This document shows positions 9,090 to 63,274 of a stretch of DNA of 64,000 nucleotides, piece after piece. Below the pieces are notes generated by a model, which did no database searches, was not told where the DNA came from, and was given only the letters and a program-made list of their open reading frames with translations. Within the stretch, counting starts at the first letter, position 1. Every line of letters begins with the position of its first letter. The position numbers and the translations under genes were made by a program. The DNA comes from Mollicutes bacterium (GTDB lineage Bacteria > Bacillota_I > Bacilli_A > RF39 > UBA660), in NCBI GenBank assembly GCA_012837765.1, contig DUQO01000018.1, positions 16,014 to 80,013 of the forward strand. The letters run 5' to 3'.

Positions 9090-9689
9090 TTATGAAATTT
9101 TTTTGCGTTCAGATAAAGCTGTTTTTAATGTAAAGGTATCGATATATTCCATATCAGCCCCCATAGGAATCCCATGAGCAAGCTTTGATACTGCAATATC
9201 CTTGTTTTCAAGTTTTTTTGATATATACAACGCTGTAGCTTCTCCCTCAAGCGAAGGTTTAACAGCAATAATTATCTCTTTTATATTTTCATTATCTACT
9301 CTGTTAATAAGTTTATCTATATCAATATCATCTGGATCAATTCCGTTTGATGGAGAAATCAATCCTTTTAAAATATGATATTTACCATTAAAAAGATCGT
9401 TTTTTTCGAATAATATTAAACTTTTTACATCATCGACAACACAAAGAACATTATTATTTCTGTTCTTATCTTTACAAATATCACATTTTTCATCCTCTGA
9501 TAAGTTATTACATATTGAACAACGTTTTATTTTATCTTTTACATCTGTTATAGATTTAGCAAAAGAAGTTAAAACATCCTTATCAAAATCTAACATTGTA
9601 AGAGCCATTCTTTCAGCTGTTTTGTCACCAACGCCAGGTAAGTTTTTAAAATTTTCTATTAAGTTATTTAAACTTCTTGGGTATCCCAT
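9090..9689 (-). CDS. recR: Recombination protein RecR
   Basis: C4 zinc finger CSICNNLSEDEKCDIC, Toprim region, 199 aa. Confidence 0.9.
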   Translation of the reverse strand: MGYPRSLNNLIENFKNLPGVGDKTAERMALTMLDFDKDVLTSFAKSITDVKDKIKRCSICNNLSEDEKCDICKDKNRNNNVLCVVDDVKSLILFEKNDLFNGKYHILKGLISPSNGIDPDDIDIDKLINRVDNENIKEIIIAVKPSLEGEATALYISKKLENKDIAVSKLAHGIPMGADMEYIDTFTLKTALSERKKIS

Positions 9690-9690
9690 A

Positions 9691-9999
9691 TTACATCAAT
9701 CCTGACAACCCAGAGCCATATTTTCCTAATTTTTCTTCAATCTCAGCATCAACTTTTTTCAAAGCATCATTAACAGCAATAACAATAATATCTTGAAGCA
9801 TCTCAATATCGGTATCGTCAAATTTAAAATCCTTATCAAATGTTATTTTTAACACTTCTTTTTTCCCATTTACACTAACTTCTACAAAAGAATATTTCCC
9901 GGGAAATATTTTTGCATCAATTTCCTCCTTGGTTTTTAACATTTCTTGTTGTAATTTTTGTGCTTGTTTCATCATTGCTTGAATATTCACTTTTATCAT
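9691..9999 (-). CDS. ybaB: Nucleoid-associated protein YbaB/EbfC
   Basis: 102 aa between dnaX and recR, with the characteristic family pattern. Confidence 0.85.
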   Translation of the reverse strand: MIKVNIQAMMKQAQKLQQEMLKTKEEIDAKIFPGKYSFVEVSVNGKKEVLKITFDKDFKFDDTDIEMLQDIIVIAVNDALKKVDAEIEEKLGKYGSGLSGLM

Positions 10000-10003
10000 C
10001 CTT

Positions 10004-11728
10004 TCATTTTATTTCTATTAAATCTTCACCAAAAACATTTATAGCCTCTTCAATCTCTTTACTTCTTTTTTTAGGCTTTGGTGGTTTCTTTATTTCTTCC
10101 TCACTAATTTCTGGCAAAATATCAATTTTTTTCTTTTCTTTCATTATCTTTATGTAATGAGGTCTTATCTTTTGCCAATCTTCTTCCACTATATTTATTA
10201 TTTTATATTTTTCACTAAACATATTATCAATTAGCAACTCAATTTCACTTCTTAAATTATCTGCTCTCTCTACAATAGCATCATATTGATATGACCATAT
10301 AATACATTCATCAGAAGCGCCAACAATTTTACCATCTAATAATATTGTTGCTGCTTGTTTAAAATCCTTATTAATCAAAAACGTTGATAATTGACTACAT
10401 TTAGTTTTTAGATCATTAAGAAGTTTTTTCTTAGCTTTAGCTAAAGTATTATTGATTAGAATTTTTTTATACTTTGGAATATTTACAAAAGGAAGAAAAT
10501 CATCCTCTGTTGTTGTTTCTTTTAAGATTTCTTTTTTTACCCTCGTTTCCTCTTTGTAAACTTCTTCCTTCTTTGTAGGTTCCTTAATTTTTATTACTTC
10601 TGTTTCTACTTCTTTCTCTTCTTCAGAACTTACAGTTTCTTTTTTTGTATTTACATCGAGCAGTTTCAACAATATTATTTCGAAAATAGTTTTTGGATGT
10701 GTAGACACTTTTAAATCTTGTATCGACCTATTAAATTCACTTATATACAAGTATGTTTTTTCTTCACTTATTTTATTTATAAGATCTTGATGTTTTTCCA
10801 TATTATATGAATAATTCTCTTTAAAAAATTTCTTAGCTTTCTTATACAATAAAATGTCCTTCAAAAAAACAACAATATCTTCTGCAATTTTAATAAAGTC
10901 TTTACCTTCCTGATAAAAAATATCAACTTCTTTAAATACATCATTTAAATTACCGTCAACAATATTTTGGATTGTTTTTGCTATATCATCTTTTGAAACA
11001 GACGAACTTAAAAGTTCAACATCTTTTATATCAATATTATTATCTGTATAAGAATATAACTGCTCAAGTAACCCTATCGCATCTCTCATACCACCATCTG
11101 AAATTCTTGCTATCTCATAAAGTGCAGTATTTGTAATTTTAATTTGTTCTTCTTTCACAATATAATCTAATCTTATTTTCATTTGATCTTCAGTAATCTT
11201 TTTAAAATTATAATTTTGACATCTTGAAATAATAGTAAGAGGTAACTTATGCATTTCTGTTGTTGCTAATATAAAAACAACATGACGAGGTGGCTCTTCT
11301 AATGTTTTTAATAAAGCATTGAATGCACCTATTGATAACATATGCACTTCATCTATAATGTAAACCTTATACTTACATATACTAGGCGATAAATTGATTT
11401 TACTTTTTAAATCTCTAATCTCATCAACACCATTATTTGAAGCGGCATCTATTTCAACAACATCATTTGTTTGTTCAGCATCTATCAATTTACATATCTC
11501 ACACTCATCACATGGGACACCATCAATAGGATTCATACAGTTAATGGTCTTAGCAAATATTTTTGCAACACTTGTTTTTCCTGTTCCACGAGGACCACTA
11601 AAAAGATAAGCGTGACTAACTTTTTCTTCTTTCACTGCGTTTTTAAGAGTTTTAACAATCATATCTTGACCTACAACTCCATCATAATTGTTAGGTCTAT
11701 ATTTTCTATATAAAGCTCTATAAGTCAT
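10004..11728 (-). CDS. dnaX: DNA polymerase III subunits gamma/tau
   Basis: Walker A GPRGTGKTS, zinc module CDECEIC, DEVHML. Confidence 0.9.
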   Translation of the reverse strand: MTYRALYRKYRPNNYDGVVGQDMIVKTLKNAVKEEKVSHAYLFSGPRGTGKTSVAKIFAKTINCMNPIDGVPCDECEICKLIDAEQTNDVVEIDAASNNGVDEIRDLKSKINLSPSICKYKVYIIDEVHMLSIGAFNALLKTLEEPPRHVVFILATTEMHKLPLTIISRCQNYNFKKITEDQMKIRLDYIVKEEQIKITNTALYEIARISDGGMRDAIGLLEQLYSYTDNNIDIKDVELLSSSVSKDDIAKTIQNIVDGNLNDVFKEVDIFYQEGKDFIKIAEDIVVFLKDILLYKKAKKFFKENYSYNMEKHQDLINKISEEKTYLYISEFNRSIQDLKVSTHPKTIFEIILLKLLDVNTKKETVSSEEEKEVETEVIKIKEPTKKEEVYKEETRVKKEILKETTTEDDFLPFVNIPKYKKILINNTLAKAKKKLLNDLKTKCSQLSTFLINKDFKQAATILLDGKIVGASDECIIWSYQYDAIVERADNLRSEIELLIDNMFSEKYKIINIVEEDWQKIRPHYIKIMKEKKKIDILPEISEEEIKKPPKPKKRSKEIEEAINVFGEDLIEIK

Positions 11729-11793: not shown

Positions 11794-12201
11794 CTAGTTT
11801 CTCATTTTTTTAAAAAACAACTTTAATAATCTTGAACACTCCTTTTCTTGTACATCACTATTTGTAATAACAAGTGGCAAATCAACTTCTTTTGTATTTT
11901 TGGTACCATATACAACCTTATCCATACGTGCTTGTTTAATAGCACCCATACACATAGGACAAGGCTCTAAAGTAACATAGATTGTACAACCATTAAGACG
12001 CCAATCTTTTATTTTTTTACAAGCCTTTTTAATAGCTAGAATTTCTGCATGGCACGTTGTATCTTTTTTTGTTTCTCTTTTGTTATGTGCTCTTGCTATA
12101 ATTTTTGAATCTTTTACAATTACAGCTCCAACAGGAACTTCTCCCTTGCGAAGAGCCTTCTTTGCTTGCTCAATTGCTTCACTCATATATATTTCTTCCA
12201 T
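11794..12201 (-). CDS. tadA: tRNA-specific adenosine deaminase
   Basis: HAE and PCPMC zinc motifs. Start set at MEEIYMSEA, which has RBS AAAGGTGA; the ORF-track start at 12231 is GTG-initiated. Confidence 0.85.
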   Translation of the reverse strand: MEEIYMSEAIEQAKKALRKGEVPVGAVIVKDSKIIARAHNKRETKKDTTCHAEILAIKKACKKIKDWRLNGCTIYVTLEPCPMCMGAIKQARMDKVVYGTKNTKEVDLPLVITNSDVQEKECSRLLKLFFKKMRN

Positions 12202-12220
12202 ATTTTCACCTTTTAAAAAA

Positions 12221-12296
12221 AAGACGCACACAAAAAGGGATTGTTAAGGCTGCTTTCTTCCGAATCTGACCTGATTCCAATATTTTTGTTGCGCCA
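12221..12296 (-). ncRNA. ffs: Small (4.5S-type) SRP RNA
   Basis: Minus strand AGGUCAGAUUCGGAAGAAAGCAGCC matches the SRP domain IV consensus AGGUCAGGUCCGGAAGGAAGCAGCC, with a compensatory closing pair around the GGAA tetraloop. 5' GGCGCAACAAAAA pairs with 3' UUUUUGUGUGCGUC, followed by a U-run. Confidence 0.6.
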
Positions 12297-12301
12297 TATA
12301 T

Positions 12302-12330
12302 AATATACATTATTTTGCCTAAAAATACAA
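12302..12330 (-). promoter_or_regulatory. Promoter for the SRP RNA (TTGTAT-17-tgTATATT, extended -10)
   Basis: Read on the minus strand: TTGTATttttaggcaaaataatgTATATT, 7 nt upstream of the GGCGC RNA 5' end. Confidence 0.5.
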
Positions 12331-12358
12331 CCAAAAAAGGTTTTTATTATTCAAAAAT

Positions 12359-12480
12359 ATTTCCCGGGAAATATTTCCTACACCTTTGTTAACAAATGGT
12401 AACCAGGTTGTTATTTTTACAATGTTTCACGTGAAACATTGTAGTAGTTTTTTGATTATATGTTTCACGTGAAACATATA
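12359..12480. promoter_or_regulatory. Cluster of perfect palindromes: AAATATTTCCCGGGAAATATTT, TTGTTAACAA, CAATGTTTCACGTGAAACATTG, ATATGTTTCACGTGAAACATAT
   Basis: Read directly from the sequence. Two copies of a 16-bp TGTTTCACGTGAAACA core lie 45 bp apart (centre to centre). Candidate operator sites. Confidence 0.5.
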
Positions 12481-12626
12481 ACATCTTCTATTGTTAAAAT
12501 ACAAAATCTTTATAATTGCAAGATTCTATATGGCAACTTTATTTGAAACAATTTGTAAAGATGTGAAGCAATTGTTTTTTTTGCTGATATGCGATACTTT
12601 ATTAGCTTCTCATTTTAAAGATAATA

Positions 12627-12664
12627 AAAGCACTGACTTTATTGCATCAGTGCTTTCTTTTTTA
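12627..12664. terminator. Bidirectional rho-independent terminator after gyrA
   Basis: AAAGCACTGA / TCAGTGCTTT stem with T-runs on both strands. Confidence 0.7.
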
Positions 12665-15121
12665 TTCGTTGGTTTCCTCTTCTGTTTTTATTTCACCCTC
12701 TTCTTCAGTTTCTTCTTTTTCAACGTTAAAGCTTGTCGTTACTTTTTGTTCATCTTTTAAAGTAATCAATCTCACTCCTTGTGTTACTCTACTCATAATT
12801 GAAATTTGATCAATTGGTATTCTAATTACCATTCCACTATCTGTAATTATAATTAGATCTTGAGTTTCATCTACTACCTTAAAGGAAACTATTCCTCCAT
12901 TTTTATCTGTGCTATTTATTGTTTTAACTCCTTTGCTTCCTCTATGAGTTAAACGATATTCGCTAACTTTAGTTCTTTTACCATAACCGTTTTCTGTAAC
13001 AACTAACACTTCTTTTTCATCTTCTGCTATTTCGATTCCAACGCATTTTGAATCTCCTAAATTAATTCCTTTTACTCCAGAAGCAGTTCTTCCCATTATA
13101 CGAACTTCATCCTCATCGAATCGAACCATTCTTCCAGCTGAAGAGGCTAATAAAATTTGATCATTACCATTAGTTTTTCTTACCCCTATCAATTCATCTC
13201 CATCTTTAAGAGTGATAGCTATTTTTCCGCTAGAACGGATGTTTTCAAACTCTTTCATCTCTACTCGTTTGACTTGTCCGTTTCTTGTAGCAAAAATCAA
13301 ATTATAATCGTGTTCTTCTGCATGAACAGGGAGAACTGAGTTTACGTACTCATCAGATTCTATCGGTAAAATGTTTACTATTGGCAAACCTTTTGCTTGT
13401 CTACTGTACTCTGGTATTTCATATCCTTTTACTCGGTAAACTTTACCCTTATTAGTAAAGAATAAGAGATATTCATGAGTTGTCATTGTTACCAAATCTT
13501 GTACGAAATCTTCTTCATTAGTCGTCATTCCTTTAACACCAACACCACCTTTGTTTTGTAATTTATATGTGTCTGTTGGAATTCTTTTGATATATCCTTT
13601 ATTAGTAAGAGTAATTATTATATCTTCCACTGGAATAAGTGACTCATCTTCGATATATTCAATAGTCTCATTATCAATATAGGTTCTTCTCTCATCTCCA
13701 TATTTTTGTTTTATCTCAAGTAATTCGTTTTTCACAATTTCTAGAACCTTTTCTTCACTCGCTAATATTGATTTTAATTCGCTTATAAGTATTAATAAGT
13801 TTTTTAATTCCTCATCTATTTTTTCCCTTTCAAGGCCTGTCAATCTTCTCAATTTCATTTCTAGGATTGCTTCAGATTGAACATCAGTTAAACCAAATTT
13901 CTCCATCAAAGATTTTTTAGCAATAGCATCATCATTAGATGATTTTAATATTTTTATTATTTCGTCAATATGATCTAGTGCAATTTTCAATCCCTCTAAT
14001 ATATGAGCACGTTTTTCTGCCTTATCTAAATCAAATTGCGTTCTTCTATAAATAACTGTTCGTTGGAAATCAATATATTTTTCTATAATTTCTTTTAACC
14101 CAAACGTTCTTGGTTGTCCATCATGTAACATCAATAGATTTATACCATAACTAGTTTGTAATGGTGTATGTTTATATAGATTATTTAATATAACATTAGC
14201 TTTTGCGTCTCTTTTTAATTCTATTATTATCTTAACGCCATTTTTTACAGAAGATTCATCATATAAGTCAGATATTCCATCGATGACCTTATCTCTTACC
14301 AATTCTGCTATCTTTTTCTTTAAAGTTGTTTTATTTACTTTATATGGAATTTCTGTAATGACAATTTCTGATTTATTATTTTTTTCTACAATTTCAGCTT
14401 TCCCTCTGATTGTAATGGAACCCTTACCGGTTTCATAAGCTTTTTTGATACCACTATTACCTAAAATAATACCACCAGTTGGAAAATCTGGTCCTTTAAT
14501 ATGTTTCATCAATTCAAGAACATCTATATCGTGATTATCTATATAAGCCACGCATCCATCTATTACTTCAGATAAATTATGCGGTGGAATATTAGTTGCC
14601 ATTCCTACAGCAATTCCCATTGTCCCATTAACTAAAATGTTAGGAAATCTACTAGGTAATACCACTGGCTCCTTTTTCGTAGCATCAAAGTTATCTGTAA
14701 AATCAACAGTATTTTTATTAATATCTCTTAATAATTCAGTTGCTATTTTAGCTATACGAGCTTCGGTGTAACGATAAGCAGCTGCGCCATATCCGTCTAT
14801 TGAACCAAAGTTTCCGTGTCCATCAATCAATGGATATCTATAACTAAAATCTTGCGCCATTATTACAAGAGAATCATATGCTGCGGTGTCACCATGTGGG
14901 TGATAATTACCTATTACATTACCAACTGTTTTAGCGCTCTTCTGATATGGTTTTTCTGGTGTATAACCAGACTCATACATTGTATATAAAATTCTTCTGT
15001 GTACTGGTTTTAATCCATCTCTTAAATCGGGTAAAGCTCTAGATACAATAACGCTCATTGAATAATCCAAAAAGCTTTTTTCCATTTCTTTCGCTATGTT
15101 TACTTCGTATATTTTATCCAT
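12662..15121 (-). CDS. gyrA: DNA gyrase subunit A
   Basis: 819 aa with the active-site region AAMRYTEARIAKIA (Tyr) and an acidic C-terminal tail. Confidence 0.95.
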   Translation of the reverse strand: MDKIYEVNIAKEMEKSFLDYSMSVIVSRALPDLRDGLKPVHRRILYTMYESGYTPEKPYQKSAKTVGNVIGNYHPHGDTAAYDSLVIMAQDFSYRYPLIDGHGNFGSIDGYGAAAYRYTEARIAKIATELLRDINKNTVDFTDNFDATKKEPVVLPSRFPNILVNGTMGIAVGMATNIPPHNLSEVIDGCVAYIDNHDIDVLELMKHIKGPDFPTGGIILGNSGIKKAYETGKGSITIRGKAEIVEKNNKSEIVITEIPYKVNKTTLKKKIAELVRDKVIDGISDLYDESSVKNGVKIIIELKRDAKANVILNNLYKHTPLQTSYGINLLMLHDGQPRTFGLKEIIEKYIDFQRTVIYRRTQFDLDKAEKRAHILEGLKIALDHIDEIIKILKSSNDDAIAKKSLMEKFGLTDVQSEAILEMKLRRLTGLEREKIDEELKNLLILISELKSILASEEKVLEIVKNELLEIKQKYGDERRTYIDNETIEYIEDESLIPVEDIIITLTNKGYIKRIPTDTYKLQNKGGVGVKGMTTNEEDFVQDLVTMTTHEYLLFFTNKGKVYRVKGYEIPEYSRQAKGLPIVNILPIESDEYVNSVLPVHAEEHDYNLIFATRNGQVKRVEMKEFENIRSSGKIAITLKDGDELIGVRKTNGNDQILLASSAGRMVRFDEDEVRIMGRTASGVKGINLGDSKCVGIEIAEDEKEVLVVTENGYGKRTKVSEYRLTHRGSKGVKTINSTDKNGGIVSFKVVDETQDLIIITDSGMVIRIPIDQISIMSRVTQGVRLITLKDEQKVTTSFNVEKEETEEEGEIKTEEETNE

Positions 15122-23667: not shown

Positions 23668-24192
23668 TTAATTGAGAAATTTATCTATTATTTCTTGAAC
23701 AAAAAACTTATATTCAACTTCTGTTGATTCTTCAGCTTCTAACAAACATAATGGTGGAAATAATACACACCACCAATTACTTCCTTTACCCTCTCCAAGT
23801 TTTACCAATATAGATTCATAATATCCTTCATCATATTCAATACCTTTATATACCTTTTTAGGAAAATAATGAGATCCAAAATTAATATTATAACCAAGAT
23901 TGTAATTTTCTTTTTTAAGAACATCATTTATCTTTTTATCAAAATTATTAAGATTGGTTTTTATAATATTTCTTGCTTCAACAATGTTGTTAGCATCTTT
24001 TAAATAAGCATATACATCGCTTTGTAGTTCTGTTTTAACCTTTTCTTTAATACTTTGATCATAATTAGAATCACTATTAGCAAGAACTCTAAGTCTAATA
24101 GCATCATCAGGAATTATTTTCTTATTTGACGAAACCTCATAAAAAACAGTAAATAATAATGTTAAAATAATACCGCCAATTATTTTTTTCAT
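23668..24192 (-). CDS. spoIIR: Stage II sporulation protein R
   Basis: AIRLRVLANSDS and NWWCVLFPPLC match B. subtilis SpoIIR. Start set at the MKKIIGG signal peptide. Confidence 0.8.
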   Translation of the reverse strand: MKKIIGGIILTLLFTVFYEVSSNKKIIPDDAIRLRVLANSDSNYDQSIKEKVKTELQSDVYAYLKDANNIVEARNIIKTNLNNFDKKINDVLKKENYNLGYNINFGSHYFPKKVYKGIEYDEGYYESILVKLGEGKGSNWWCVLFPPLCLLEAEESTEVEYKFFVQEIIDKFLN

Positions 24193-24238
24193 ATAAAAAT
24201 CCGTCCTCCTATTACATATTGGACAGATTTGCAATTAT

Positions 24239-28776: not shown

Positions 28777-30699
28777 GTGAAAAAAATAAAATGGTTTCTC
28801 TTTTTTGTTTGTTTTTGTATATATTCTTTCTTTTTTATTCATTATGGTTTTTATTTAGTTGCTAAGTTTACATCTAAAATAGATATTAGAAATGCTAATA
28901 GTGTTTTTTTGTATGATAACAACGAAAACTTGTTTTTTCAAGGTAATGGAAAAAAAGAGTGGATTTCTCTTAACAAGATGTCTAAACATATTATTAATGC
29001 AACTATTTCGATTGAAGATAAAAACTTCTATCACCATGTTGGGTTTGATTATTTAAGAATAATTAAATCCTTATATGAAAACGCAAAATCTAGAAAATAT
29101 GTACAAGGTGCTTCTACTATAACACAGCAATATGTTAAAAACTTATACCTTGACTTTGATAAAAGATGGGATAGAAAGATCGAAGAAGCTTGGCTTACTA
29201 TTAAAATGGAAGTTAAATATTCAAAAGATGAAATTCTAGAAGGCTATTTAAATACTATAAATTATGGTAATGGTGTATTTGGAATAGAAAATGCTGCAAG
29301 ATATTATTTTGATAAGAGTGCTGCAGATTTAACACTTGCAGAAGCATCAATGTTAGCGGGAATTCCTAACTCCCCTAATAACTATTCGCCTTTAAATGAT
29401 GAATTAGAAGCTAAAAAAAGGCAACATGTAATTTTAACAAGCATGGTTAATAATAACTACATAACCGAAGAAGAAAAAAAAGAAGCGTTTGATACAAAAC
29501 TTACATATATAGGCAAAAAAGAAAAATATAATTTATCAACATTAATGTATTATCAAGATGCCGTTATGAAGGAATTATACAATATAAAATATATTCCTTC
29601 TTCATTAATTGAAACTGGAGGTTTAAAAATATACACAAATCTTAATATAGAAGCACAAACTATTTTAGAAAATGCAATTAATAATAATTTAAAAGAAAAT
29701 CAAGACATGCAAATAGCATCAGTTGTTGTAGAACCTAAAACAGGTAAAATAATTGCATTAACAGGTGGACGTGATTACCAAAAATCACAATTTAATAGGG
29801 CTACTCAGTCAAAACGACAAGTTGGATCAACAATAAAACCTTTCCTTTATTATGCAGCTTTGGAAAACGGTTTTACTTCTTCTACAACTTTTTTAAGTGA
29901 ACCTACTGTTTTTACATTTGGTGAAAATGATTCTTATGCACCTAATAATTATGGACAATTATATCCTAATAAGCCTATCTCAATGGCTGCAGCTATAGCT
30001 TTTTCAGATAATATATATGCTGTTAAGACTCATTTGTTTATTGGTGAAGATGTTCTTGTTAAAACGATGAAAAGAGTTGGGGTTAAAGAAAAATTAAATC
30101 CTAATGCCTCTTTACCTCTTGGAACAGGAGAGTTAAATATTATTGATTTTTTAACTGGTTATAATACTATTGCTAATGAGGGCGTTAAAGTTGATCTTCA
30201 TTTAATAAATAAAATTACTGATGCAAATGATAATGTTATATATGAACATAAAAATAATGAAGAAGCTGTACTAGATAAAAATATAACATATATATTAAAT
30301 GATTTACTTACAACAACATATGACTACAATATGCTTGATTATAGTACCCCTACATGTTTAAATATTTCAGCCAAAATATCAAATAAATGGGCTTTAAAAA
30401 CTGGTACAACCGATTTTGATGCTTGGACTGTTGGTTATAATAAAGATTTATTAGTTGGTGTTTGGACAGGATATGATGATAATAAACTTTTAGCGTCAGG
30501 AGAATCAAAATATTCAAAAAATATATGGGTAGATACTGCTGAAGGATATTTGAAAAATAAAGAAGTTAATTGGTATGAAATGCCGGAAAATGTTGTTGGA
30601 ACATTAGTAAATCCGATAAACGGTAATATTAATGACAAAACAAGCAATAAAAAAAGAATTTTATATTATCTAAGAGGTAGTGAACCACAGATAAGATAA
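28777..30699 (+). CDS. Class A penicillin-binding protein (transglycosylase plus transpeptidase)
   Basis: GT51 motifs GASTITQQYVKN and RKIEEAWL. Transpeptidase motifs STIKP (SxxK), SDN and KTGTT. N-terminal TM anchor. Confidence 0.85.
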   Translation: MKKIKWFLFFVCFCIYSFFFIHYGFYLVAKFTSKIDIRNANSVFLYDNNENLFFQGNGKKEWISLNKMSKHIINATISIEDKNFYHHVGFDYLRIIKSLYENAKSRKYVQGASTITQQYVKNLYLDFDKRWDRKIEEAWLTIKMEVKYSKDEILEGYLNTINYGNGVFGIENAARYYFDKSAADLTLAEASMLAGIPNSPNNYSPLNDELEAKKRQHVILTSMVNNNYITEEEKKEAFDTKLTYIGKKEKYNLSTLMYYQDAVMKELYNIKYIPSSLIETGGLKIYTNLNIEAQTILENAINNNLKENQDMQIASVVVEPKTGKIIALTGGRDYQKSQFNRATQSKRQVGSTIKPFLYYAALENGFTSSTTFLSEPTVFTFGENDSYAPNNYGQLYPNKPISMAAAIAFSDNIYAVKTHLFIGEDVLVKTMKRVGVKEKLNPNASLPLGTGELNIIDFLTGYNTIANEGVKVDLHLINKITDANDNVIYEHKNNEEAVLDKNITYILNDLLTTTYDYNMLDYSTPTCLNISAKISNKWALKTGTTDFDAWTVGYNKDLLVGVWTGYDDNKLLASGESKYSKNIWVDTAEGYLKNKEVNWYEMPENVVGTLVNPINGNINDKTSNKKRILYYLRGSEPQIR

Positions 30700-34574: not shown

Positions 34575-34895
34575 AATTTCACCTCCCTTTTTGTCTCACA
34601 TATTATATATGATTTTTTAAAATTTTACTAGTTAAAAATTATTGATTATAATTATAAAAAATAGTACCACATTTTTTGTGATACTATTTTATGTTTAATT
34701 CGTTATATCTAACAATTTAAAAAGTTATCTTACAATTTTTTAAATTCAAGTCCTTTTAACACTACTTTAAAATGAACTTTTTTTTGAATTATCTATCATA
34801 ATTGATATACCTGGTACTGCTATTGCGAGTATTACAGCTAAAAGTTATACCAAGGTAAACTTTTTTTAAACTTATCACTCTATTATAATTATAAT

Positions 34896-37436
34896 TTAAA
34901 GTCCTTCTCCAACAGATAAGACAGCACGAAAGCCATAACCACCACCAAACTCAGCACCCATAAAATATTCAAAATTGAAAGGACCCGCAGAGGCACCACT
35001 ACCATAATAACCACCGCGAATAAACCAAGGATTACTGTTATTTGCCATATAAGAATAGTCTCCATACCATGATGTTGAGCCTGTTCCCACATTACTTGTC
35101 TCATAAAGTGCATCGCCTTTAGACGATATAGTTAATTTATAATTTTCTGTTTGATTATCCGTTTCAGCTACTTCATATACATCTTTATATTTAGAGTGTG
35201 ATATGTAAGCACTTTCACCATATACTGTTAAATATACGTGTGAATTATCTACATAGGCGGATAAATATTCCCAGGCTCCTCCTGACATATCATATATACC
35301 TGTTATATTTCCTGTTGTACTTGCCTTTACTCCATCAGTTGTATGGTACTCATTACAGATACTTTCATTTGTTGCATTTACTCCACTACCTGCACATCCT
35401 GTTTTATTTGAAGTGTTTGAATTATTCCATATTTCATTTGGATTACCATACTGTGATTTAGATAGATATGCTACTGCGCCCCATTCGGTATTCTTCATCA
35501 TATGGGTATCTATTCCATTACCACTGGTTCCCCAGCCATAGATTGAATTAGTTTCCATACTCCTTACTTTGTTAAATATATTATTTACTGATATGTATCT
35601 CCATGAAATTACTCCTGGTACTATTTTAACATTGTTACTTCCGTCATTGCTTGACTCAAATTTTCCTACCCAAATTCCTGTAAGTTCAACACCACCAAAG
35701 GTGAAAGCTGGATGACTTGTCCATGTTCCATTAGAGTCTGTTGCACGCCCTGTATTTACTAATGTTACTGTGCCTCCTAATGTATCATCTATACCTTTAC
35801 TAAATTGAACCTCGATTGTTCCTGTACTAGATGAATGCCATCCTGATGTAATCCTATATATATATCTTGGGATCCAGACCCACATTGAACCATCAGCTGT
35901 TTTAGCATTAGCCCACATCATTTCATCATAATTATACCATTCAGAATCTGACAAACTTGTATTAACCCAGGTTGTTCCATTCCATTTAATTGGGATCATT
36001 CCTTCTGCTAAAATAGGAGCGTTTGCTATACTTTTTTCACGAACATCTATTATTCTTTTAATACTCGTCTTATTTCCACTAAAATCACTAACTACATATT
36101 CAATTTTGTATGTTCCAGGTTTATTTATATTTAAATTACTAATTTTAATTATTTTGTCTGTTATATCCCCATCTACATTATCAATTGCTGTAGCTCCTGC
36201 ATCTACATACTCTTCACCAACATATAGATTTATTAAATTATCACCTAACAATGTGATTACAGGTTTTTCTCTATCAACACTAACAATGTCTTTTATCACA
36301 TATGGATTATCAAATTCACCTGTTCCTCTATCAATATATATATTTCCTTTTAAATTAATAACAGGTCTTGTGTGAATTGTAGTGTTGGCATCAACAGGAG
36401 CACCTAATGAACCAACAGAATTAACAGTCCATACTTTGGTGGAATTATTATCAGGTGTAAGAGTCCAATAATTATAAAAGTTTTTATATAAATAATTATC
36501 ATTTTTACAACTGATTCCATTATCACCTGATGTTTTATATGCTGTCAAACAATTATTATCTAGACTAGCGTATAAATAATCACTTCCATTTAATAATCCT
36601 ATTGATAAATTTGTTGTTTGTGTTACACATTCATTATTTAAAAATGTTGATTTTGTAACTCCACTAGTGCTATAACCTATTTTTCCAACACACCATTTGT
36701 TCGTTTGTACTTTTGCTTTGTTATTTTCACTTATGTTTGAATTGTACCAATTTTGCAATCTTGTCGCTATAGAAACAGAACTTTTATATTCATTTGTGTT
36801 TGAATTATCAAATGTTCCATTTCCTATATTTCCATTTTGTTCTGTTCCTTCTCCTTTTCGTTTTCCTTCATATATTATTTTTATAGAATCATCATTATTT
36901 ATTTTGACAATGCGCCATAAAGAATCATTAAATTCAATCCAATTTTTAGGATTTAATCCTCTATAATAATAAGTATTATTTGAATAATTAAAATGCAAAC
37001 CTGGAGTAGTTCCTGAAACTACATTAGTTGATTCAGTTAATTTATCAACTAAGAAAATTGGTGCATAACAACCTCTATCTTCATAACAAATAGATAATGT
37101 TTTTTTTGTTTCACGAACAACAAAAATCTTTTTAGTTAAATCAATTTCTTCGTCACTTCTAGGATCTTTAACAGGCAATTTTAATAAATTATCTTCTTTT
37201 AAATCATTTAATGACAAACTATAATAATTATAAGTATCAAGATGTTTTTCTATTTCATCACGGTGTCTTGAAACATATAATCTAGCATTATTTTCAAAAC
37301 TATCTATTAAAATATTATATGAATTTTCCTTAGCATTTCTTATCATTTTAAAAACGCTAGGTATAACAAGAGATGATAATATTACAAGTATAACTATTAC
37401 TGCTAATAATTCAACTAATGTAAATCCCTTTTTCAT
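34896..37436 (-). CDS. Large prepilin-type N-terminal domain protein with DUF5011 Ig-like domain and FGE-sulfatase-like C-terminal domain
   Basis: Class III signal MKKGFTLVELLAVIVIL (G|FTLVE). DUF5011 block PVITLLGDN...GATAIDNVDGDIT...PGTY...VSDFSGN. C-terminal motifs NTEWGAVAY, GIYDMSGGAWEY, PWFIRGGYY and GGGYGFRAV parallel the FGE/SUMF1 blocks. Own promoter and RBS AGGTGA. The ORF-track start is a TTG; the ATG is at 37436. Confidence 0.6.
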   Translation of the reverse strand: MKKGFTLVELLAVIVILVILSSLVIPSVFKMIRNAKENSYNILIDSFENNARLYVSRHRDEIEKHLDTYNYYSLSLNDLKEDNLLKLPVKDPRSDEEIDLTKKIFVVRETKKTLSICYEDRGCYAPIFLVDKLTESTNVVSGTTPGLHFNYSNNTYYYRGLNPKNWIEFNDSLWRIVKINNDDSIKIIYEGKRKGEGTEQNGNIGNGTFDNSNTNEYKSSVSIATRLQNWYNSNISENNKAKVQTNKWCVGKIGYSTSGVTKSTFLNNECVTQTTNLSIGLLNGSDYLYASLDNNCLTAYKTSGDNGISCKNDNYLYKNFYNYWTLTPDNNSTKVWTVNSVGSLGAPVDANTTIHTRPVINLKGNIYIDRGTGEFDNPYVIKDIVSVDREKPVITLLGDNLINLYVGEEYVDAGATAIDNVDGDITDKIIKISNLNINKPGTYKIEYVVSDFSGNKTSIKRIIDVREKSIANAPILAEGMIPIKWNGTTWVNTSLSDSEWYNYDEMMWANAKTADGSMWVWIPRYIYRITSGWHSSSTGTIEVQFSKGIDDTLGGTVTLVNTGRATDSNGTWTSHPAFTFGGVELTGIWVGKFESSNDGSNNVKIVPGVISWRYISVNNIFNKVRSMETNSIYGWGTSGNGIDTHMMKNTEWGAVAYLSKSQYGNPNEIWNNSNTSNKTGCAGSGVNATNESICNEYHTTDGVKASTTGNITGIYDMSGGAWEYLSAYVDNSHVYLTVYGESAYISHSKYKDVYEVAETDNQTENYKLTISSKGDALYETSNVGTGSTSWYGDYSYMANNSNPWFIRGGYYGSGASAGPFNFEYFMGAEFGGGYGFRAVLSVGEGL

Positions 37437-37464
37437 CAATTAAATCACCTATTTTCCTGAATTA

Positions 37465-37493
37465 ATGATACCTTTAAAGTTTCTTTAAGTCAA
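37465..37493 (-). promoter_or_regulatory. Promoter of the prepilin-like gene (TTGACT-17-TATCAT)
   Basis: Lies just downstream of the dnaN terminator on the minus strand. Confidence 0.5.
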
Positions 37494-37518
37494 GAAAAAG
37501 AACTTATTAATAAGTTCT
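37490..37518 (-). terminator. Terminator overlapping the dnaN stop codon
   Basis: Perfect 20-bp palindrome AGAACTTATTAATAAGTTCT followed by a T5 run on the minus strand. Confidence 0.6.
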
Positions 37519-47578: not shown

Positions 47579-48295
47579 ATGCTTCATTTTGTAATCTTTG
47601 ATGACAATGAGTTGATAAGAGAAAAAGTAAACAAAGTAATAACTAAATTAATGTTACCGACGGATATAGAATATAAAACGTTGGAATTTTCCAAATACAA
47701 TAAAAGTTTTGCTCAATTGATAGAAAGAAGAGGAGAAAAGAAAATATATATATTAGATATAGAAGTAGATTCTTACTCTGGTTTGGATGTTGCAAGAAAA
47801 ATAAGAGAGAGAGATTGGGAAAGCATTATAATAGTTTTAACAGCACATTATGAACTTGCATATGATGCCTTTAAAAATAGACTAATGTTGTTAGATTTTA
47901 TTTCAAAATTTGATAATTATGAACAAAATTTATATGATGTTTTAAAATTAGCATTAAAAGCATCACATGTTAAAAAACAATTTTCTTTTACTTCCAATAG
48001 AATGGCATATAGGGTTGATTACGATGATATTTTATATATTATCAAGGATACAGCAAAAAGAAATACAATTGTTAAAACTTTTTCTAAAGAATACCCTGTA
48101 TCACTTAACTTAAATGAAATAATGGCAATGTTGCCAGATAATTTTATTCAAACACATAGAGCATGTACAATTAATAGGGATAATGTAAAAACAATTGATT
48201 TTAAAGAAAACATTATAACATTTATTAATAATGAAAAAATATCAATGTTATCAAAAACATATAAGAAAGAAGTGAAAGAACATGTCTTTAGTTGA
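47579..48295 (+). CDS. LytTR-family response regulator (AgrA-like)
   Basis: Receiver with phospho-acceptor Asp in YILDIEVDS. C-terminal LytTR module ...ILYIIKDTAKRNTIV...QTHRACTIN. Confidence 0.8.
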   Translation: MLHFVIFDDNELIREKVNKVITKLMLPTDIEYKTLEFSKYNKSFAQLIERRGEKKIYILDIEVDSYSGLDVARKIRERDWESIIIVLTAHYELAYDAFKNRLMLLDFISKFDNYEQNLYDVLKLALKASHVKKQFSFTSNRMAYRVDYDDILYIIKDTAKRNTIVKTFSKEYPVSLNLNEIMAMLPDNFIQTHRACTINRDNVKTIDFKENIITFINNEKISMLSKTYKKEVKEHVFS

Positions 48296-49595
48296 TTTGA
48301 TTGGCCCCTCTTTTATCTTCAACATATTTCAACTAAAACTATCATCTGTAATAATAAAAGAAAAAATAGACTTTAAAAACGGAAAAAACATATTTTTATT
48401 TATACTTTTAATAGTAATGCTTTCCTTTTCAACTTTAGTTTTTAATAATTTTTTACGAGTGGTATTCAATTTCTTATGTTTGCTCTTTTTCTATTATTTT
48501 ATTCATAACAAAGGAATAAATGTAGCATTTATCGTTTCGTTTATTGCCTTCTTTTTATTTTTTATGTCAGAAATAATATTTTCTTCAATGTTATACTTTG
48601 TTAGTCAAATATGGGATATATCTATTGATATTGAAAAAAATACATTGCTATATTTAATATCAAATATATCAATTGGTTTTATGGCTATTATAATATATCG
48701 AATAAAAAAAATAAAACAAATTATTTTTACTTTGATTAAAAATTATGAAAAAACCAAATTTACTAAAACCATGTTGATAATACTAATGTTAATTTTTGTA
48801 TTAGTAAATAAAAATTTTTTATTGTTTGATTTTTATTTTGATTATCTTTTGAATCTATTTATTGTAGCGTTATTTTGCTTAATAGCTTATTTATTATTAA
48901 AGGAAAAAAATGCAAATGTGTCATTATCTAAAAAATATGATCAACTGTTTAGTTATTTAGAAAATTATGAAAAAGAACTTAATAAAAAAAGTATAATAAT
49001 TCATGAATTTAATAATCAACTAATTGCTATAAAAGGATTCAATGATAAGAAAAATAAGCATTTAGAACAATACCTAAATTCTATAATTAAAGATAATCAA
49101 AAGGGTGGAGAAAAGTTTCTTGATGATATGGAAAACCTTCCAAAGGGAGGATTAAAAGGATTAATTTATTATAAATTAGGATATCTGAAAGATGAAGGAA
49201 TTAATGTTGTAACTGATATTAGTTCAACTGTTAGAAAAAATGCCTTCGCTAAATTTGATCCTTCTTTATATAGAGATATTTTAAAAATAGTAGGTGTGTT
49301 GTTAGATAATGCTGTAGAGGCTGCAAAAGAATCAAAAGAAAAGCAAATATCATTAGAAATCTTTTGTACTAAAAATGATTTTAATATTGTATTATCTAAT
49401 ACCTTTTGTAATAATATTGATCTTGAAAAAATAGATGAATCAAAATATTCGACAAAAGGTAAGGATAGGGGATATGGACTTGCATTAGTAAAGCAAATAG
49501 TTAAAGATAATCCTAAATTGCAAGTTAAAAAAGAAATAATTAATAATTTCTTTGTTTCGACATTAACAATTGAACTAAAAAACACTTCTAATTAG
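48282..49595 (+). CDS. AgrC-like (HPK10) membrane sensor histidine kinase
   Basis: Six N-terminal TM helices, H-box IIIHEFNNQLIAIKG, GHKL motifs LLDNAVEA and GYGLALV. Confidence 0.7.
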   Translation: MSLVDLIGPSFIFNIFQLKLSSVIIKEKIDFKNGKNIFLFILLIVMLSFSTLVFNNFLRVVFNFLCLLFFYYFIHNKGINVAFIVSFIAFFLFFMSEIIFSSMLYFVSQIWDISIDIEKNTLLYLISNISIGFMAIIIYRIKKIKQIIFTLIKNYEKTKFTKTMLIILMLIFVLVNKNFLLFDFYFDYLLNLFIVALFCLIAYLLLKEKNANVSLSKKYDQLFSYLENYEKELNKKSIIIHEFNNQLIAIKGFNDKKNKHLEQYLNSIIKDNQKGGEKFLDDMENLPKGGLKGLIYYKLGYLKDEGINVVTDISSTVRKNAFAKFDPSLYRDILKIVGVLLDNAVEAAKESKEKQISLEIFCTKNDFNIVLSNTFCNNIDLEKIDESKYSTKGKDRGYGLALVKQIVKDNPKLQVKKEIINNFFVSTLTIELKNTSN

Positions 49596-49611
49596 ATAGA
49601 AGTGTTTTTTA
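49578..49611. terminator. Bidirectional terminator between the convergent kinase and agrD
   Basis: Perfect 13-bp inverted repeat AAAAACACTTCTA / TAGAAGTGTTTTT. Confidence 0.65.
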
Positions 49612-49616
49612 GATTA

Positions 49617-49751
49617 TTATTCTATTATTGATTTTGGTGCTTCTGGTTCATCAAACCAAAAAAGAATGCATCCAACATGAGCAGCATTAGAAGCAAGTAA
49701 GCCAACTACTGCTGCAAAGCGTCCTATAATCTTTAGTGTCCTCTTTTTCAT
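49617..49751 (-). CDS. agrD: AgrD-like autoinducing peptide precursor (44 aa)
   Basis: My translation MKKRTLKIIGRFAAVVGLLASNAAHVGCILFWFDEPEAPKSIIE: amphipathic leader, conserved Cys, C-terminal DEPEAPK tail (compare S. aureus ...CDFIMDEVEVPKEL). RBS GGGAGGAATATT. Below the ORF-track cutoff. Confidence 0.7.
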   Translation of the reverse strand: MKKRTLKIIGRFAAVVGLLASNAAHVGCILFWFDEPEAPKSIIE

Positions 49752-49784
49752 AATATTCCTCCCTTCTCATTCTTTATCAAATCA

Positions 49785-50390
49785 TCATTTTTTTTGATGA
49801 TATGATTTGTAGTTGTTATATGGTAAATTTAGTAATCTATATGAAATGGGTATTATTAGTAAAGATTCAATTACTAATGAAAATATAAGGCAATTTGATA
49901 CTAAGTTATTGCTTATAAAAAATGACAACAAACCATAAAAAATAGCTGTCAAAGAAGAAAGTAATTTATATTTTTTTCTTCTTTTTTTATTTATTAGTGG
50001 TCGTTTATGAGTGTCTGCAGGAGCATATAAAATAATAATAATAAAGCAAATAATAAAAATTAATATTTTTATAAATAAATTTATTACTAATACTGAGGCT
50101 AAATAAGATGTAAAAATAAAAACACTACCAGATAAAAACAAACAAATTCTGCTATTAGGAGCATGCAATCCAAAAGCATATAATCTAATACCACTAAATA
50201 TAATTGTTAATAACAAAAATTCTTTTAAAAGATTTAGAAAAAAACTGACTGTAACAAAAAGTATTGTTTTTCCAAGTAACAAGTATATTGCTTCTAAACC
50301 ATAACTAATTTTTTCGATATGTATATTGTTGTATGAGTTGTCATTTTTTTCTATCACCATAAGTAACTTATTTATAACTGCATTTTTCAT
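49785..50390 (-). CDS. agrB: AgrB-like membrane peptidase/cyclase
   Basis: Catalytic region FGLHAPNSRICLF (His/Cys) and YAPADTHKRP, 201 aa polytopic membrane protein. Confidence 0.8.
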   Translation of the reverse strand: MKNAVINKLLMVIEKNDNSYNNIHIEKISYGLEAIYLLLGKTILFVTVSFFLNLLKEFLLLTIIFSGIRLYAFGLHAPNSRICLFLSGSVFIFTSYLASVLVINLFIKILIFIICFIIIILYAPADTHKRPLINKKRRKKYKLLSSLTAIFYGLLSFFISNNLVSNCLIFSLVIESLLIIPISYRLLNLPYNNYKSYHQKK

Positions 50391-58115: not shown

Positions 58116-59229
58116 ATGGAAATGAAACAAATAAAACAAGAGTTTGAAACATATAAAAATGAAATTGAAGAAATATGGAGGCTTCTTTGACTTAACAGAA
58201 AAGGAAGAAAAAATTAAAGAATTAACTATTCAAATGAACAATCCAGACTTTTGGAATGATAAAGAAAAAGCAGAGAAAATAATCGAAGAATGTAATAATC
58301 TTAAAACAATTGTTGGGAATGTATCGACATTAAAAAAGACTATAAACGACAATATAGAAATGATAGAAATGTTGGATGAAGAACCAAATGATGAAATAGT
58401 TAGTATAATTGAGGCAGAAATGCCAGGTATAGAAAAGAAACTTGATGATCTTAGGCTAGAAGTAATATTGAATGAACCATATGATAAGAATAATGCTTTA
58501 CTAGAAATTCATGCAGGGGCAGGTGGAACAGAGTCTTGTGATTGGGCTAGTATGCTTATGCGTATGTATTTAAGATGGTGTGATGTAAAATCTTATAAAT
58601 ACGAGATACTAGATGTACAAAACGGAGATGAAGCTGGAATAAAAAGAGCTAATATCTTAATAAAAGGGTTTAATGCATATGGATATTTAAAAGGGGAAAA
58701 AGGAGTTCATCGATTAGTTCGTATCTCACCTTTTGATGCTAATAAAAGACGTCATACATCTTTTGCAGCAATTGAAGTTATACCACAAATAGATGATAGT
58801 ATTGAAGTTGAACTAAAGGATTCAGAACTAAAGATAGACGTATATCGTAGCAGTGGTGCTGGTGGACAATCAGTAAATACAACAGACAGTGCGGTAAGAA
58901 TCACGCATCTACCTACTGGAGTTGTTGTAACATGTCAAAACGAACGTAGTCAGATTAAAAATAAGGAAAAAGCTCTTCAAGTATTAAAAAGTAAATTATA
59001 TCAATTGGAATTAGAAAAAAGAGATAAATCCTTATCAGTAATGAAAGGAAATCTTTCCGAAATTAATTTTGGATCGCAAATAAGATCCTATGTTATGCAT
59101 CCTTATATGATGGTTAAAGATCATCGCACGGAAGAAGAAACAAGTAATGTTTTGAAAGTATTAGATGGGGATATAGATATGTTTATAGAAAAGTATTTGA
59201 AGGGGCGAATTAGTAATGAAAAAAAATAA
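58116..59229 (+). CDS. prfB: Peptide chain release factor 2, with programmed +1 frameshift at CTT TGA C (58185-58191)
   Basis: Frame 0 reads MEMKQIKQEFETYKNEIEEIWRLL then TGA. SD-like GGAGG sits 3 nt upstream of CTT TGA C. The +1 frame continues DLTEKEEKIKEL...SPF...GGQ through 59229. Parallels B. subtilis ...DFRGSL*DLESKE... Confidence 0.85.
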
Positions 59230-62575: not shown

Positions 62576-63274
62576 TTGGATAATATGAATCAAGGCAATA
62601 ACTTTAATTTTGGAATTGGTGAAAGTGGAAATGACGCAAGTACATATCAAAGTTATTATAGACATCAACCAAATAAAAGTAATCCACTTTTAATAATTAT
62701 AGTAATTTTAATAATTCTAATAATTCTTGGCATGCTTTGGTTCTCTGGTTTTTTCACACCTCTAGATAGGCAAGCAGAATACAAAAAACTATATAATAGA
62801 GTTTGTTCTGCTTCAATTACTTATGCCGAAGATCATAATAAAAAAGATAAAAATAATCCTGGAAAAATAATATATCTTACAGTAGGACAGTTAGCATCTG
62901 CCAATTTAGTAGAAGCAAATTTAGTGAATTATCTTAATAATGAGCCAATTCCTTTAAGTACTTATATAAGATTAGAAGTTTTACCTAGTGGTACTTTCAA
63001 ATGCTATGGGTTTGTTGATAAAAGTGAAGATAAAGAAAGACCTGTTATTACACTATTGGGAGAATCAACAATACATAGTAAAGTTGGAGAAACGGTTACA
63101 GATCCAGGTGCAACAGCTCTAGATAATAAGGATGGCGATATAACAGAAAAAATTAAAAGAAGTGGGAATGTTAATATAAACATCCCAGGAACATATAGGG
63201 TTTATTATACTGTAAGTGATATATCTGGTAATATTTCAAAAACCGTTGTAAGAACATACATTATTGGATATTAG
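62576..63274 (+). CDS. Type II membrane protein with C-terminal DUF5011 Ig-like domain
   Basis: TM segment LLIIIVILIILIILGMLWFSGFF. RPVITLLGEST...GATALDNKDGDIT...PGTYRVYYTVSDISGN parallels the domain in the 34896-37436 protein. Confidence 0.5.
   Translation: MDNMNQGNNFNFGIGESGNDASTYQSYYRHQPNKSNPLLIIIVILIILIILGMLWFSGFFTPLDRQAEYKKLYNRVCSASITYAEDHNKKDKNNPGKIIYLTVGQLASANLVEANLVNYLNNEPIPLSTYIRLEVLPSGTFKCYGFVDKSEDKERPVITLLGESTIHSKVGETVTDPGATALDNKDGDITEKIKRSGNVNINIPGTYRVYYTVSDISGNISKTVVRTYIIGY

Follow-up and report, generated by a model that had tools for sequence, protein, structure and literature searches.

Type IV pili gain functions through modules that are grafted onto minor pilins, and diversity-generating retroelements (DGRs) hypermutate the C-type-lectin tips that phage fibres and Bacteroides type V pili bear. 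Modular pilins are a described class with grafted modules in 264 architectures (Raynaud et al. 2021, PMC8179133), among them Streptococcus sanguinis PilB, which joins a pilin to a vWA module, and PilC, which joins a pilin to a lectin (PMC8179133). The protein described here is encoded in a 64-kb window, by which we mean the whole stretch of DNA that was analysed. It resembles PilB and PilC in its class III signal peptide and its small pilin module, after which grafted non-pilin binding modules follow, and likewise in its monoderm host and in the tip display and adhesin role that are expected of it. It differs in carrying three grafted modules instead of one, in a terminal module that is a TaqVP-like C-type lectin of the FGE subtype and not a vWA or concanavalin-type lectin, and in a gene that lies outside any pilus operon.

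TaqVP, the DGR variable protein of a Thermus aquaticus prophage (PDB 5vf4; PMC6328139), represents the "TaqVP-like" class. The C-terminal RGG...GFR segment of our protein corresponds to its variable region (VR), and two homologues from the same family, at loci L045 and L032, are DGR-diversified. TaqVP is, however, a single-domain prophage protein with adjacent template repeat (TR), Avd and reverse transcriptase (RT), whereas the domain described here would sit at the tip of a multidomain protein that is cellular and pilin-anchored, with neither TR nor RT within 64 kb. The adhesins of Bacteroides type V pili, which are diversified by DGRs (bioRxiv 10.1101/2024.11.15.621889), are alike in concept—a pilus-borne adhesive subunit of gut bacteria whose C-type-lectin-fold tip is hypermutable by a cellular DGR. 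They differ in pilus type (type V versus type IV), in phylum (Bacteroidota versus Bacillota) and in the anchoring module, and our gene has no DGR beside it.

The gene in its origin region

The 846-aa open reading frame of the first-pass annotation stands, with the ATG at 37436 as the likely start codon (Table 1); a longer version from an upstream TTG covers 34896..37439 on the minus strand and encodes 847 aa. The feature had been drawn to 37494, an end that takes in the promoter-like site, while the reading frame itself ends at 37436 or 37439. As to the promoter that the gene was said to own, the TTGACT-17-TATCAT site is present, but such sites are not above chance here: the AT-rich stretch holds 28 of them against 22.7 ± 6.1 expected from shuffles, with no enrichment. 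A dnaN terminator had been claimed as well. The terminator scan makes no call at the dnaN stop codon, whereas folding gives an AT-rich hairpin of 8 bp (37518-37499) followed by a U-run, which is plausible as a weak terminator.

Table 1 Features of the locus (positions within the window)
Feature	Position	Strand	Basis or remark
Whole gene, modular type IV pilin-like protein	34896..37436	-	846 codons and stop; ORF list and sequence
Leader peptide MKKG, ending with Gly-1	37425..37436	-	read from sequence; N_methyl and TIGR02532 above threshold
Pilin module, aa 1-130	37047..37436	-	hydrophobic alpha-1 helix with Glu+5, small beta-sheet head, Cys117-Cys123 pair
DUF6273 region, aa ~140-385	36282..37019	-	predicted C-type-lectin-like domain, four cysteines
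DUF5011 / Bact_surface_Ig-like domain, aa 395-466	36039..36254	-	probable spacer
C-terminal TaqVP-like, FGE-subtype C-type-lectin domain, aa 467-846	34899..36038	-	
Segment equivalent to DGR variable region, aa 794-846, including RGG...GFR	34899..35057	-	putative ligand-binding loop
Ribosome-binding site AGGTGA	37445..37450	-	8 nt 5' of ATG; sequence
Promoter-like site TTGACT-17-TATCAT	37465..37493	-	10/12 consensus matches (consensus scan)
AT-rich hairpin over dnaN stop codon with U-run	37494..37518	-	weak candidate terminator; RNA fold z-score -3.76 (region)
Candidate terminator of the gene, 14-bp hairpin with T-run	34648..34690	-	~200 nt past stop codon; terminator scan and fold

The gene had further been taken for an insertion between dnaN and mnmG. 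The order dnaA–dnaN–gene is, however, kept in four orthologues of 59-65% identity; hence, the gene belongs to the origin region by vertical inheritance and is no insertion, and a recent insertion or a mobile element at the origin was rejected on the same ground. The window ORFs were checked from a length of 120 aa upward, and all fall among housekeeping, sporulation, agr-like, secA or ftsEX genes; the stated absence of pilus-assembly genes (prepilin peptidase, assembly ATPase, platform) from the window was thereby confirmed, and a six-frame search finds a single prepilin motif in it.

This motif is the canonical prepilin leader that had been recognized before, MKKG/FTLVELL, with Gly-1 and Glu+5. 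The class III signal peptide, MKKG/FTLVELLAVIVILVILSS, comprises a short basic leader, Gly-1, a hydrophobic stretch and Glu+5, with the prepilin-peptidase cleavage site predicted before F5. Both Pfam N_methyl (PF07963; 22.1 bits, cutoff 21.2) and TIGR02532 (26.3 bits, cutoff 16.3) score above their cutoffs, and in 7/7 orthologues Gly-1 and Glu+5 are invariant. An AF2 model (m45c47b1e6a8a) predicts a helix at residues 7-69 and then strands at 71-128, with pLDDT of about 80-92 there; the modelled alpha-1 helix and beta-sheet head are as expected of a type IV pilin or pseudopilin. A PDB profile search matches the pilin module to PilE1, geopilin and GspG.

Grafted modules and their family

A modular pilin is defined by an N-terminal N_methyl motif (IPR012902) together with at least one domain without pilus specificity, and here the motif is accompanied by DUF6273, DUF5011 and a C-type-lectin fold. 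The DUF6273 region did not appear in the domain list of the first-pass annotation. Its HMM match (PF19789, aa 202-365) is borderline with 23.7 bits versus a cutoff of 23.5, and several orthologues carry a precomputed DUF6273 match. The fold appears to be C-type-lectin-like; since a homologue search with this region alone returned only 9 proteins, the domain model rests on a shallow alignment. The DUF5011 block was identified correctly, as the HMM (PF16403) aligns over its full length to aa 395-466 with 71 bits versus a cutoff of 27, and this Ig-like domain is a probable spacer.

In structure comparison, the C-terminal 380 aa have a C-type-lectin fold of the FGE subtype, and a DGR variable protein without enzymatic function is by far their closest match. 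The IgA peptidase of Thomasclavelia ramosa (PDB 9qa6; PMC12237041) and the C-terminal domain of Legionella Lcl (8q4e) share only 14-18% sequence identity with our protein. In 9qa6 the match would be the N-terminal C-type-lectin-like domain of the IgAse; unlike this enzyme, our protein has no peptidase domain.

The family of the C-terminal domain counts 3,996 representative clusters at 50% identity and is hosted by uncultured gut and digester Bacillota. No Pfam model captures it, and its annotations are automatic only. The identical protein is already in public databases as "DUF5011 domain-containing protein", thousands of relatives bear automatic prepilin or PilA labels, and modular pilins as such are described (PMC8179133), so that calling the arrangement undescribed was an overstatement. 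In a species-representative genome collection, the best match to the protein is 50% identical. Pilin-type N-termini are found in 125/201 motif-defined members—101 of these 125 with Glu5—and the remaining 76 include many N-terminal fragments. Walker-A ORFs beside members at L015, L019 and L037, which had looked GspE-like, are in fact ABC exporters.

At L045 and L032, family members form cassettes of target (VR), TR, bAvd and RT, and the VR/TR mismatches fall on template adenines in 16/17 and 22/25 cases, respectively. This family is large and little studied, and cellular DGRs rewrite at least some of its members. The tail of our protein aligns with the VRs of these two DGR targets, the highest-entropy columns of the family fall on template Asn codons, and the protein has the C-type-lectin fold with a C-terminal variable loop that characterizes a DGR variable protein. 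In the 64-kb window, however, no template repeat came up, whether by BLAST with the last 505 nt of the gene or by an "X or A" degenerate pattern, both of which match only the gene itself. Neither RVT_1 nor bAvd occurs among the window ORFs, a scan for YxDD ORFs included, and a DGR inside the window was rejected on these searches. The degenerate pattern of the tail has zero matches in viral contigs. A bias toward NNT third positions in the tail was dropped as a DGR signature, because a genome of 27.6% GC favours T-ending codons anyway.

Filament adhesin, membrane anchor, enzyme or DGR target

We consider the protein to be probably a modular type IV pilin—a minor pilin or pseudopilin—that displays lectin-type binding modules as an adhesin with a probably static loop, and neither an enzyme nor an insertion; the option of a minor-pilin adhesin, already raised in the first-pass annotation, is thus retained for this large prepilin-type protein with non-pilin modules. 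The pilin module with its class III signal peptide would carry DUF6273, the DUF5011 spacer and the TaqVP-like domain. A prepilin peptidase encoded elsewhere would cleave after Gly4, and the alpha-1 helix might then dock the protein in a type IV filament. The tip is the most likely place, as the shaft has no room for a 720-aa cargo; otherwise, the helix might hold the protein in the membrane. At the far end, the lectin fold would present a putative ligand-binding loop (aa ~806-834) that might mediate adhesion. The gene itself, conserved in the origin region, would be expressed separately. For this host, processing and filament incorporation are predictions, because the window encodes none of the assembly components.

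That the protein never enters a filament, its prepilin-like N-terminus serving only as export and anchor signal, is unlikely. Such a surface lectin would be anchored in the manner of a pseudopilin, with the Ig-like spacer carrying its cargo through the wall. The gene and most relatives are solitary amid housekeeping genes, distant from assembly genes, some paralogues (the 445-aa protein of L087 and several family members) bear a plain transmembrane anchor in place of the prepilin N-terminus, and as a filament subunit the protein would have a very bulky cargo. However, Glu5 of type IV pilins is a feature of filament assembly and not of anchoring, and it is strict together with Gly-1 in all orthologues. 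In addition, one close relative (L093), whose C-domain is 61% identical, adjoins a T2SSE ATPase and a 165-aa prepilin, and filament display of bulky modular pilins is known experimentally (PMC8179133). An enzyme—FGE, SUMF1 or EgtB-like—that modifies a cell-surface substrate from a pseudopilin anchor, the second option of the first-pass annotation, is hardly credible. Of the FGE-like domain claimed before, the fold remains: the domain shares with FGE/SUMF1 (PF03781) a C-type-lectin fold of the FGE subtype as well as motifs such as GIYDMSGGAWEY and GFR, and a weak match to Pfam FGE-sulfatase (17.3 bits, E 0.004, aa 650-731 only) exists. This match is, however, below the gathering cutoff of 23.3 bits. 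The cysteines of the protein are residues 117, 123, 249, 270, 296, 310, 681 and 694 only, with none in aa 695-846 and, unlike in FGE, no catalytic pair before GFR. It is the variable loop that falls on the catalytic site of FGE in superposition (PMC6328139), and in our family this would-be active-site loop is hypervariable and the least conserved part, the opposite of an active site. With the HMM score, the missing cysteines and the fold ranking all against it, the enzyme reading is largely refuted and was rejected; the protein is not an FGE-type or sulfatase-maturing enzyme.

For the adhesin, the remaining alternative concerns the loop. The gene might be a live remote target, with TR, bAvd and RT elsewhere in the genome rewriting aa ~806-834 through adenine mutagenesis into a hypervariable pilus-borne adhesin, which we regard as distinctly unlikely. 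Some family members are proven cis targets, and no block diverges more among seven orthologues than the tail (41% identity versus 50-75% elsewhere). Its adenine fraction of 0.12-0.13, versus 0.40 in the rest of the gene, is as low as that of active VRs (0.14 at L045) and would fit recent or ongoing retrohoming from a remote template; compared with the L045 and L032 templates, the gene matches at 59-60% of non-A positions and 30-37% of A positions. Much of the adenine depletion is, however, explicable by glycine and aromatic codons alone, and Glu823 and Met826 occupy hypervariable, template-Asn-equivalent positions that are unreachable from AAY codons via adenine changes alone. The orthologue tails differ by indels, a change that, to our knowledge, DGRs do not make. 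The two flanks, of 34.9 kb and 26.5 kb, contain neither a repeat of the 3′ end nor an RT; cassettes are rare, with 2 intact and 1 decayed among 80 family loci, and none is near the closest relatives. A look-up restricted to exact amino-acid sequences found two orthologues (P0005 and P0007), each unchanged in two sequencing runs. Since no retroelement is present at the locus, the loop, a homologue of a DGR variable region, is now most likely a static, ordinarily evolving descendant of such a system.

For annotation, this means a correction, as family members are not FGE enzymes. A bolder generalization—that gut and digester Bacillota with reduced genomes have, in the pilin-anchored TaqVP-like lectins, a large and uncharacterised class of adhesins on type IV filaments, with DGR-programmed loops and the origin-proximal gene rewritten in trans—is improbable as it stands; if true, a gene next to dnaN would give the cell a hypermutable adhesin at the pilus tip. 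For the gene itself, the outcome is more modest, namely a conserved and probably static family member. The family, on the other hand, is a meeting point of a type IV pilin module that carries a TaqVP-like lectin and, in at least some members, of DGR rewriting. It offers candidate adaptable adhesins of uncultured gut Bacillota and, from active through decayed to DGR-free copies, a natural series in which the domestication of variable proteins can be studied.

The pilin-like gene and its genomic setting

The query, the pilin-like gene between dnaN and mnmG, starts at an ATG with AGGTGA 8 nt ahead of it and a TTG one codon 5' of it. The N-terminus of its product (MKKG, then FTLVELLAVIVIL) bears Gly-1 and Glu+5, and both N_methyl (22.1 bits against a Pfam cutoff of 21.2) and TIGR02532 (26.3 bits against 16.3) pass their thresholds. 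The prepilin leader proposed in the first-pass annotation thus holds, as does its DUF5011 block (PF16403; Pfam, 71 bits, aa 395-466). GspG and ComGC-GF match partially, within the first ~50 residues only, and DUF6273 (Pfam, aa 202-365) lies barely over its cutoff at 23.7 against 23.5 bits. In a model of aa 1-470 (pLDDT 87), a helix (7-69) and the strands after it (71-128) make up a predicted pilin module, with a predicted Ig-like domain farther along.

Of the two signals annotated upstream, the promoter-like site is present in the sequence, although such sites are no more frequent in the query region than in shuffled sequence. The dnaN terminator appears on folding as an 8-bp AT-rich hairpin plus U-run across the dnaN stop but was not called by the terminator scan; a stronger hairpin with a T-run, found by scan and folding, lies ~200 nt 3' of the query gene. 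The gene had also been described as inserted between dnaN and mnmG, which does not stand: because the dnaA-dnaN-gene order is kept in the window and in the related loci L003, L086 and L087/L088, the query gene is a long-standing part of the origin region. In L087/L088, the orthologous pilin gene is directly followed by a paralogue that a plain transmembrane segment anchors and whose lectin domain is 51% identical to that of the query; the window lacks this paralogue and bears a 320-bp spacer only.

In all six frames of the window (GC 27.6%), the prepilin motif occurs just once. A Pfam scan of its other ORFs of at least 120 aa identified dUTPase, SpoVT, Mfd, Pth, PSP1, HolB, RecR, DnaX, TadA, MnmE, a GDSL lipase, MurA, Fba, MntP, SpoIIR, PrfA, PrmC, ArgS, a class A penicillin-binding protein (PBP), ParB, RsmG, MnmG, an agr-like locus, HPF, SecA, PrfB, two YitT proteins and FtsEX. 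Annotated orthologous loci that match served to assign DnaN, DnaA, RnpA, YidC and Jag; gyrA, gyrB and recF were assigned by position and size alone. Among these ORFs, we found neither a reverse transcriptase (RT) nor, in line with the earlier reading, a pilus-assembly gene.

Sporulation genes and a PBP in the window (SpoVT, SpoIIR, class A PBP; e.g., 1892-2419, 23668-24234, 28777-30699) mark the organism, on gene content, as a walled, spore-forming member of Bacillota, for which the MAG label "Mollicutes bacterium" is misleading. SpoIID and SpoIIID occur in its relatives. Near the window's end, an ORF followed by uvrB encodes a protein in which an Asn/Gln-rich N-terminus and a plain transmembrane helix are combined with a segment resembling a pilin head and with a DUF5011 Ig-like domain (67.5 bits); the DNA of this ORF is 68% identical to that of the query Ig domain (36071-36281). 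The protein seems to be a second surface protein, of non-prepilin type, that has the DUF5011 module in common with the query.

Features of the window and of related loci from other genomes (VR, variable region; TR, template repeat)
Locus	Feature	Coordinates	Strand	Remarks
Window	Query ORF	ATG 37436 to stop 34898-34896	minus	846 aa
Window	TTGACT-17-TATCAT promoter-like site	37493-37465	minus	present in sequence
Window	agr-like quorum-sensing locus	47579-50390
Window	LytTR response regulator	47579-48295		agr-like locus
Window	GHKL histidine kinase	48282-49595		agr-like locus
Window	AgrB	49785-50390	opposite to regulator/kinase genes	agr-like locus
Window	prfB homologue	58144-59229	plus	PCRF + RF-1; listed with TTG start
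Window	DUF5011 ORF	62576-63274	plus	232 aa
L087	Paralogue	11993-13330		445 aa
L088	Paralogue	12673-14010
L045	Target	7163-8818		551 aa, MKKGFTLAELI...
L045	VR	8664-8815		self-comparison
L045	TR	9263-9417		self-comparison
L045	bAvd	9935-10279
L045	RT (RVT_1)	10264-11298
L032	VR	4192-4337		self-comparison
L032	TR	4480-4625		self-comparison
L067	Segment compared with the template-like repeat	2959-3111		pilin-type member of 946 aa, followed by the repeat
L067	Template-like repeat	3405-3545		69% identity

The C-terminal domain and its family

The C-domain (aa 467-846), modelled from a 128-sequence alignment, reached a pLDDT of 97.2 and a pTM of 0.95. With this model, Foldseek retrieved TaqVP—the variable protein of a Thermus aquaticus prophage diversity-generating retroelement (DGR; PDB 5vf4)—at E 8e-11, in agreement with the fold comparison, whose next matches were PvdO (13.6), Treponema TvpA (13.0), CarF (12.8), PorK (12.1), a paralogue of formylglycine-generating enzyme (FGE; 12.0) and Bordetella phage Mtd (11.4). 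The family sequence profile found 5vf4 as its sole non-pilin match in the PDB at E < 0.01. Its predicted fold places the module among the TaqVP-like DGR variable proteins.

The FGE likeness noted at first pass survives at the level of the fold, whereas the Pfam score for FGE-sulfatase stays under threshold (17.3 against 23.3, aa 650-731 only). The enzyme reading does not hold, because the segment equivalent to the FGE active site is devoid of cysteine and is the least conserved stretch of the protein; the query cysteines are 117, 123, 249, 270, 296, 310, 681 and 694.

A search with the C-domain gave at least 7,971 proteins at E <= 1e-3 among 8,000 candidates scored, and an exhaustive search gave 3,996 representative clusters (E <= 1e-3), of which 1,037 reach E <= 1e-30. 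Most relatives measure 510-560 aa—a prepilin N-terminus, a short head and the lectin domain—and are annotated automatically, for example as "type IV pilus assembly protein PilA" or "type II secretion system protein [Bacilli bacterium]". The strict G-x-x-x-x-E prepilin motif is present in 101 of 201 motif-defined members and a G-x-T-L-type variant in a further 24; many of the remainder are fragments, and several pilin-like members escape the patterns (e.g., P0126, KKGISSIE). Giant proteins bear up to ten domain copies: P0233 (4,340 aa; pilin-like N-terminus KGLSLLVLIITIII), P0235 (4,516 aa) and P0231 (2,338 aa) hold 4-10 in tandem. The proteins come from MAGs of uncultured Bacilli, Clostridia or "Tenericutes" living in gut, rumen and digesters, and a single genome often encodes several paralogues.

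The N-terminal 466 aa of the query are elsewhere joined to Laminin_G_3, Gly-rich or Fib_succ_major C-termini; the modules of such proteins are shuffled. At L091 (75-14000) and L092 (422-8745), three or four large prepilin-type genes (586-1,408 aa) with many DUF5011/HYR-type Ig repeats form arrays in which tRNA synthetase genes are interspersed, and their common DNA blocks, 72-93% identical, point to gene conversion or to modules being actively shuffled. A family member adjoins a tandem pair of ABC exporter genes in three unrelated MAGs (L015 3691-7804, L019 1305-4810, L037 11998-16009; for L037, which also has a TetR regulator, only the first exporter gene was scanned), which may be coincidence or a conserved neighbourhood.

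The query and most family members stand isolated among housekeeping genes. In locus L093, a member with a C-domain 61% identical to that of the query directly follows a 165-aa prepilin (KGFFLAE), with a T2SSE ATPase gene in divergent orientation to the pair. Gly-1 and Glu+5 are strictly kept in all query orthologues, which likewise argues for incorporation into a filament rather than mere anchoring.

By its architecture, the protein is one of the "modular pilins" defined by Raynaud et al. (PMC8179133), who counted >1,200 proteins in 264 architectures. DGR-diversified pilus adhesins have been described for Bacteroides type V pili, in a study that also remarks on the likeness of variable proteins in cellular Bacillota to receptor-binding modules that have been co-opted (bioRxiv 10.1101/2024.11.15.621889). 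The GspG-type pilin domain is mentioned among DGR targets only as "scarcely represented" (PMC11661182), and we found no description of a large pilin-plus-TaqVP-like family in the literature.

Retroelement cassettes and the status of the query

Self-comparison of 85 related loci revealed two complete DGR cassettes, L045 and L032 (target of 607 aa; bAvd and RT after the TR). VR/TR mismatches fall at template adenines in 16 of 17 cases for L045 and 22 of 25 for L032. The two templates stem from different MAGs and resemble each other closely, whereas their target proteins have diverged much further, which suggests that the template cassette is strongly conserved or has been transferred. The repeat in L067 shows mismatches also at non-adenine positions, and PrsA-like, MraZ and MraW genes instead of an RT lie downstream; it looks like a decayed DGR.

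In the family alignment, high-entropy columns (at least 3.1 bits; domain mean 1.7) correspond to query residues 802, 806, 810, 812, 813, 816, 821, 823-826, 831, 833 and 834. Since all of these except 802 are Asn codons of the L045/L032 templates, the family's binding-loop diversity, as read from the alignment, carries a DGR imprint.

Could the query itself be the target of a remote template elsewhere in the genome? Its 3' end (34899-35057) varies more between orthologues than any other block (41% identity against 50-75% elsewhere), its adenine fraction of 0.12-0.13, against 0.40 in the body, falls to the level of the active L045 VR, and its agreement with the foreign templates is 59-60% at non-A positions and only 30-37% at A positions. 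However, such features are also expected from glycine/aromatic richness and ordinary diversifying selection. Neither an RT nor a second copy of the 3' end occurs in the 34.9 kb and 26.5 kb that flank the gene, and a cis template is present at only 3 of 80 family loci—being absent from the orthologues and the closest C-domain relatives (61-65% identity). Glu823 (GAA) and Met826 (ATG) moreover occupy template-Asn positions, although adenine changes in AAY can yield neither codon; the tails of the orthologues are set apart by indels, and two orthologues were each unchanged in sequence between two runs. A remote template is hence unlikely, and the query is probably a static member of the pilin-plus-TaqVP-like family.
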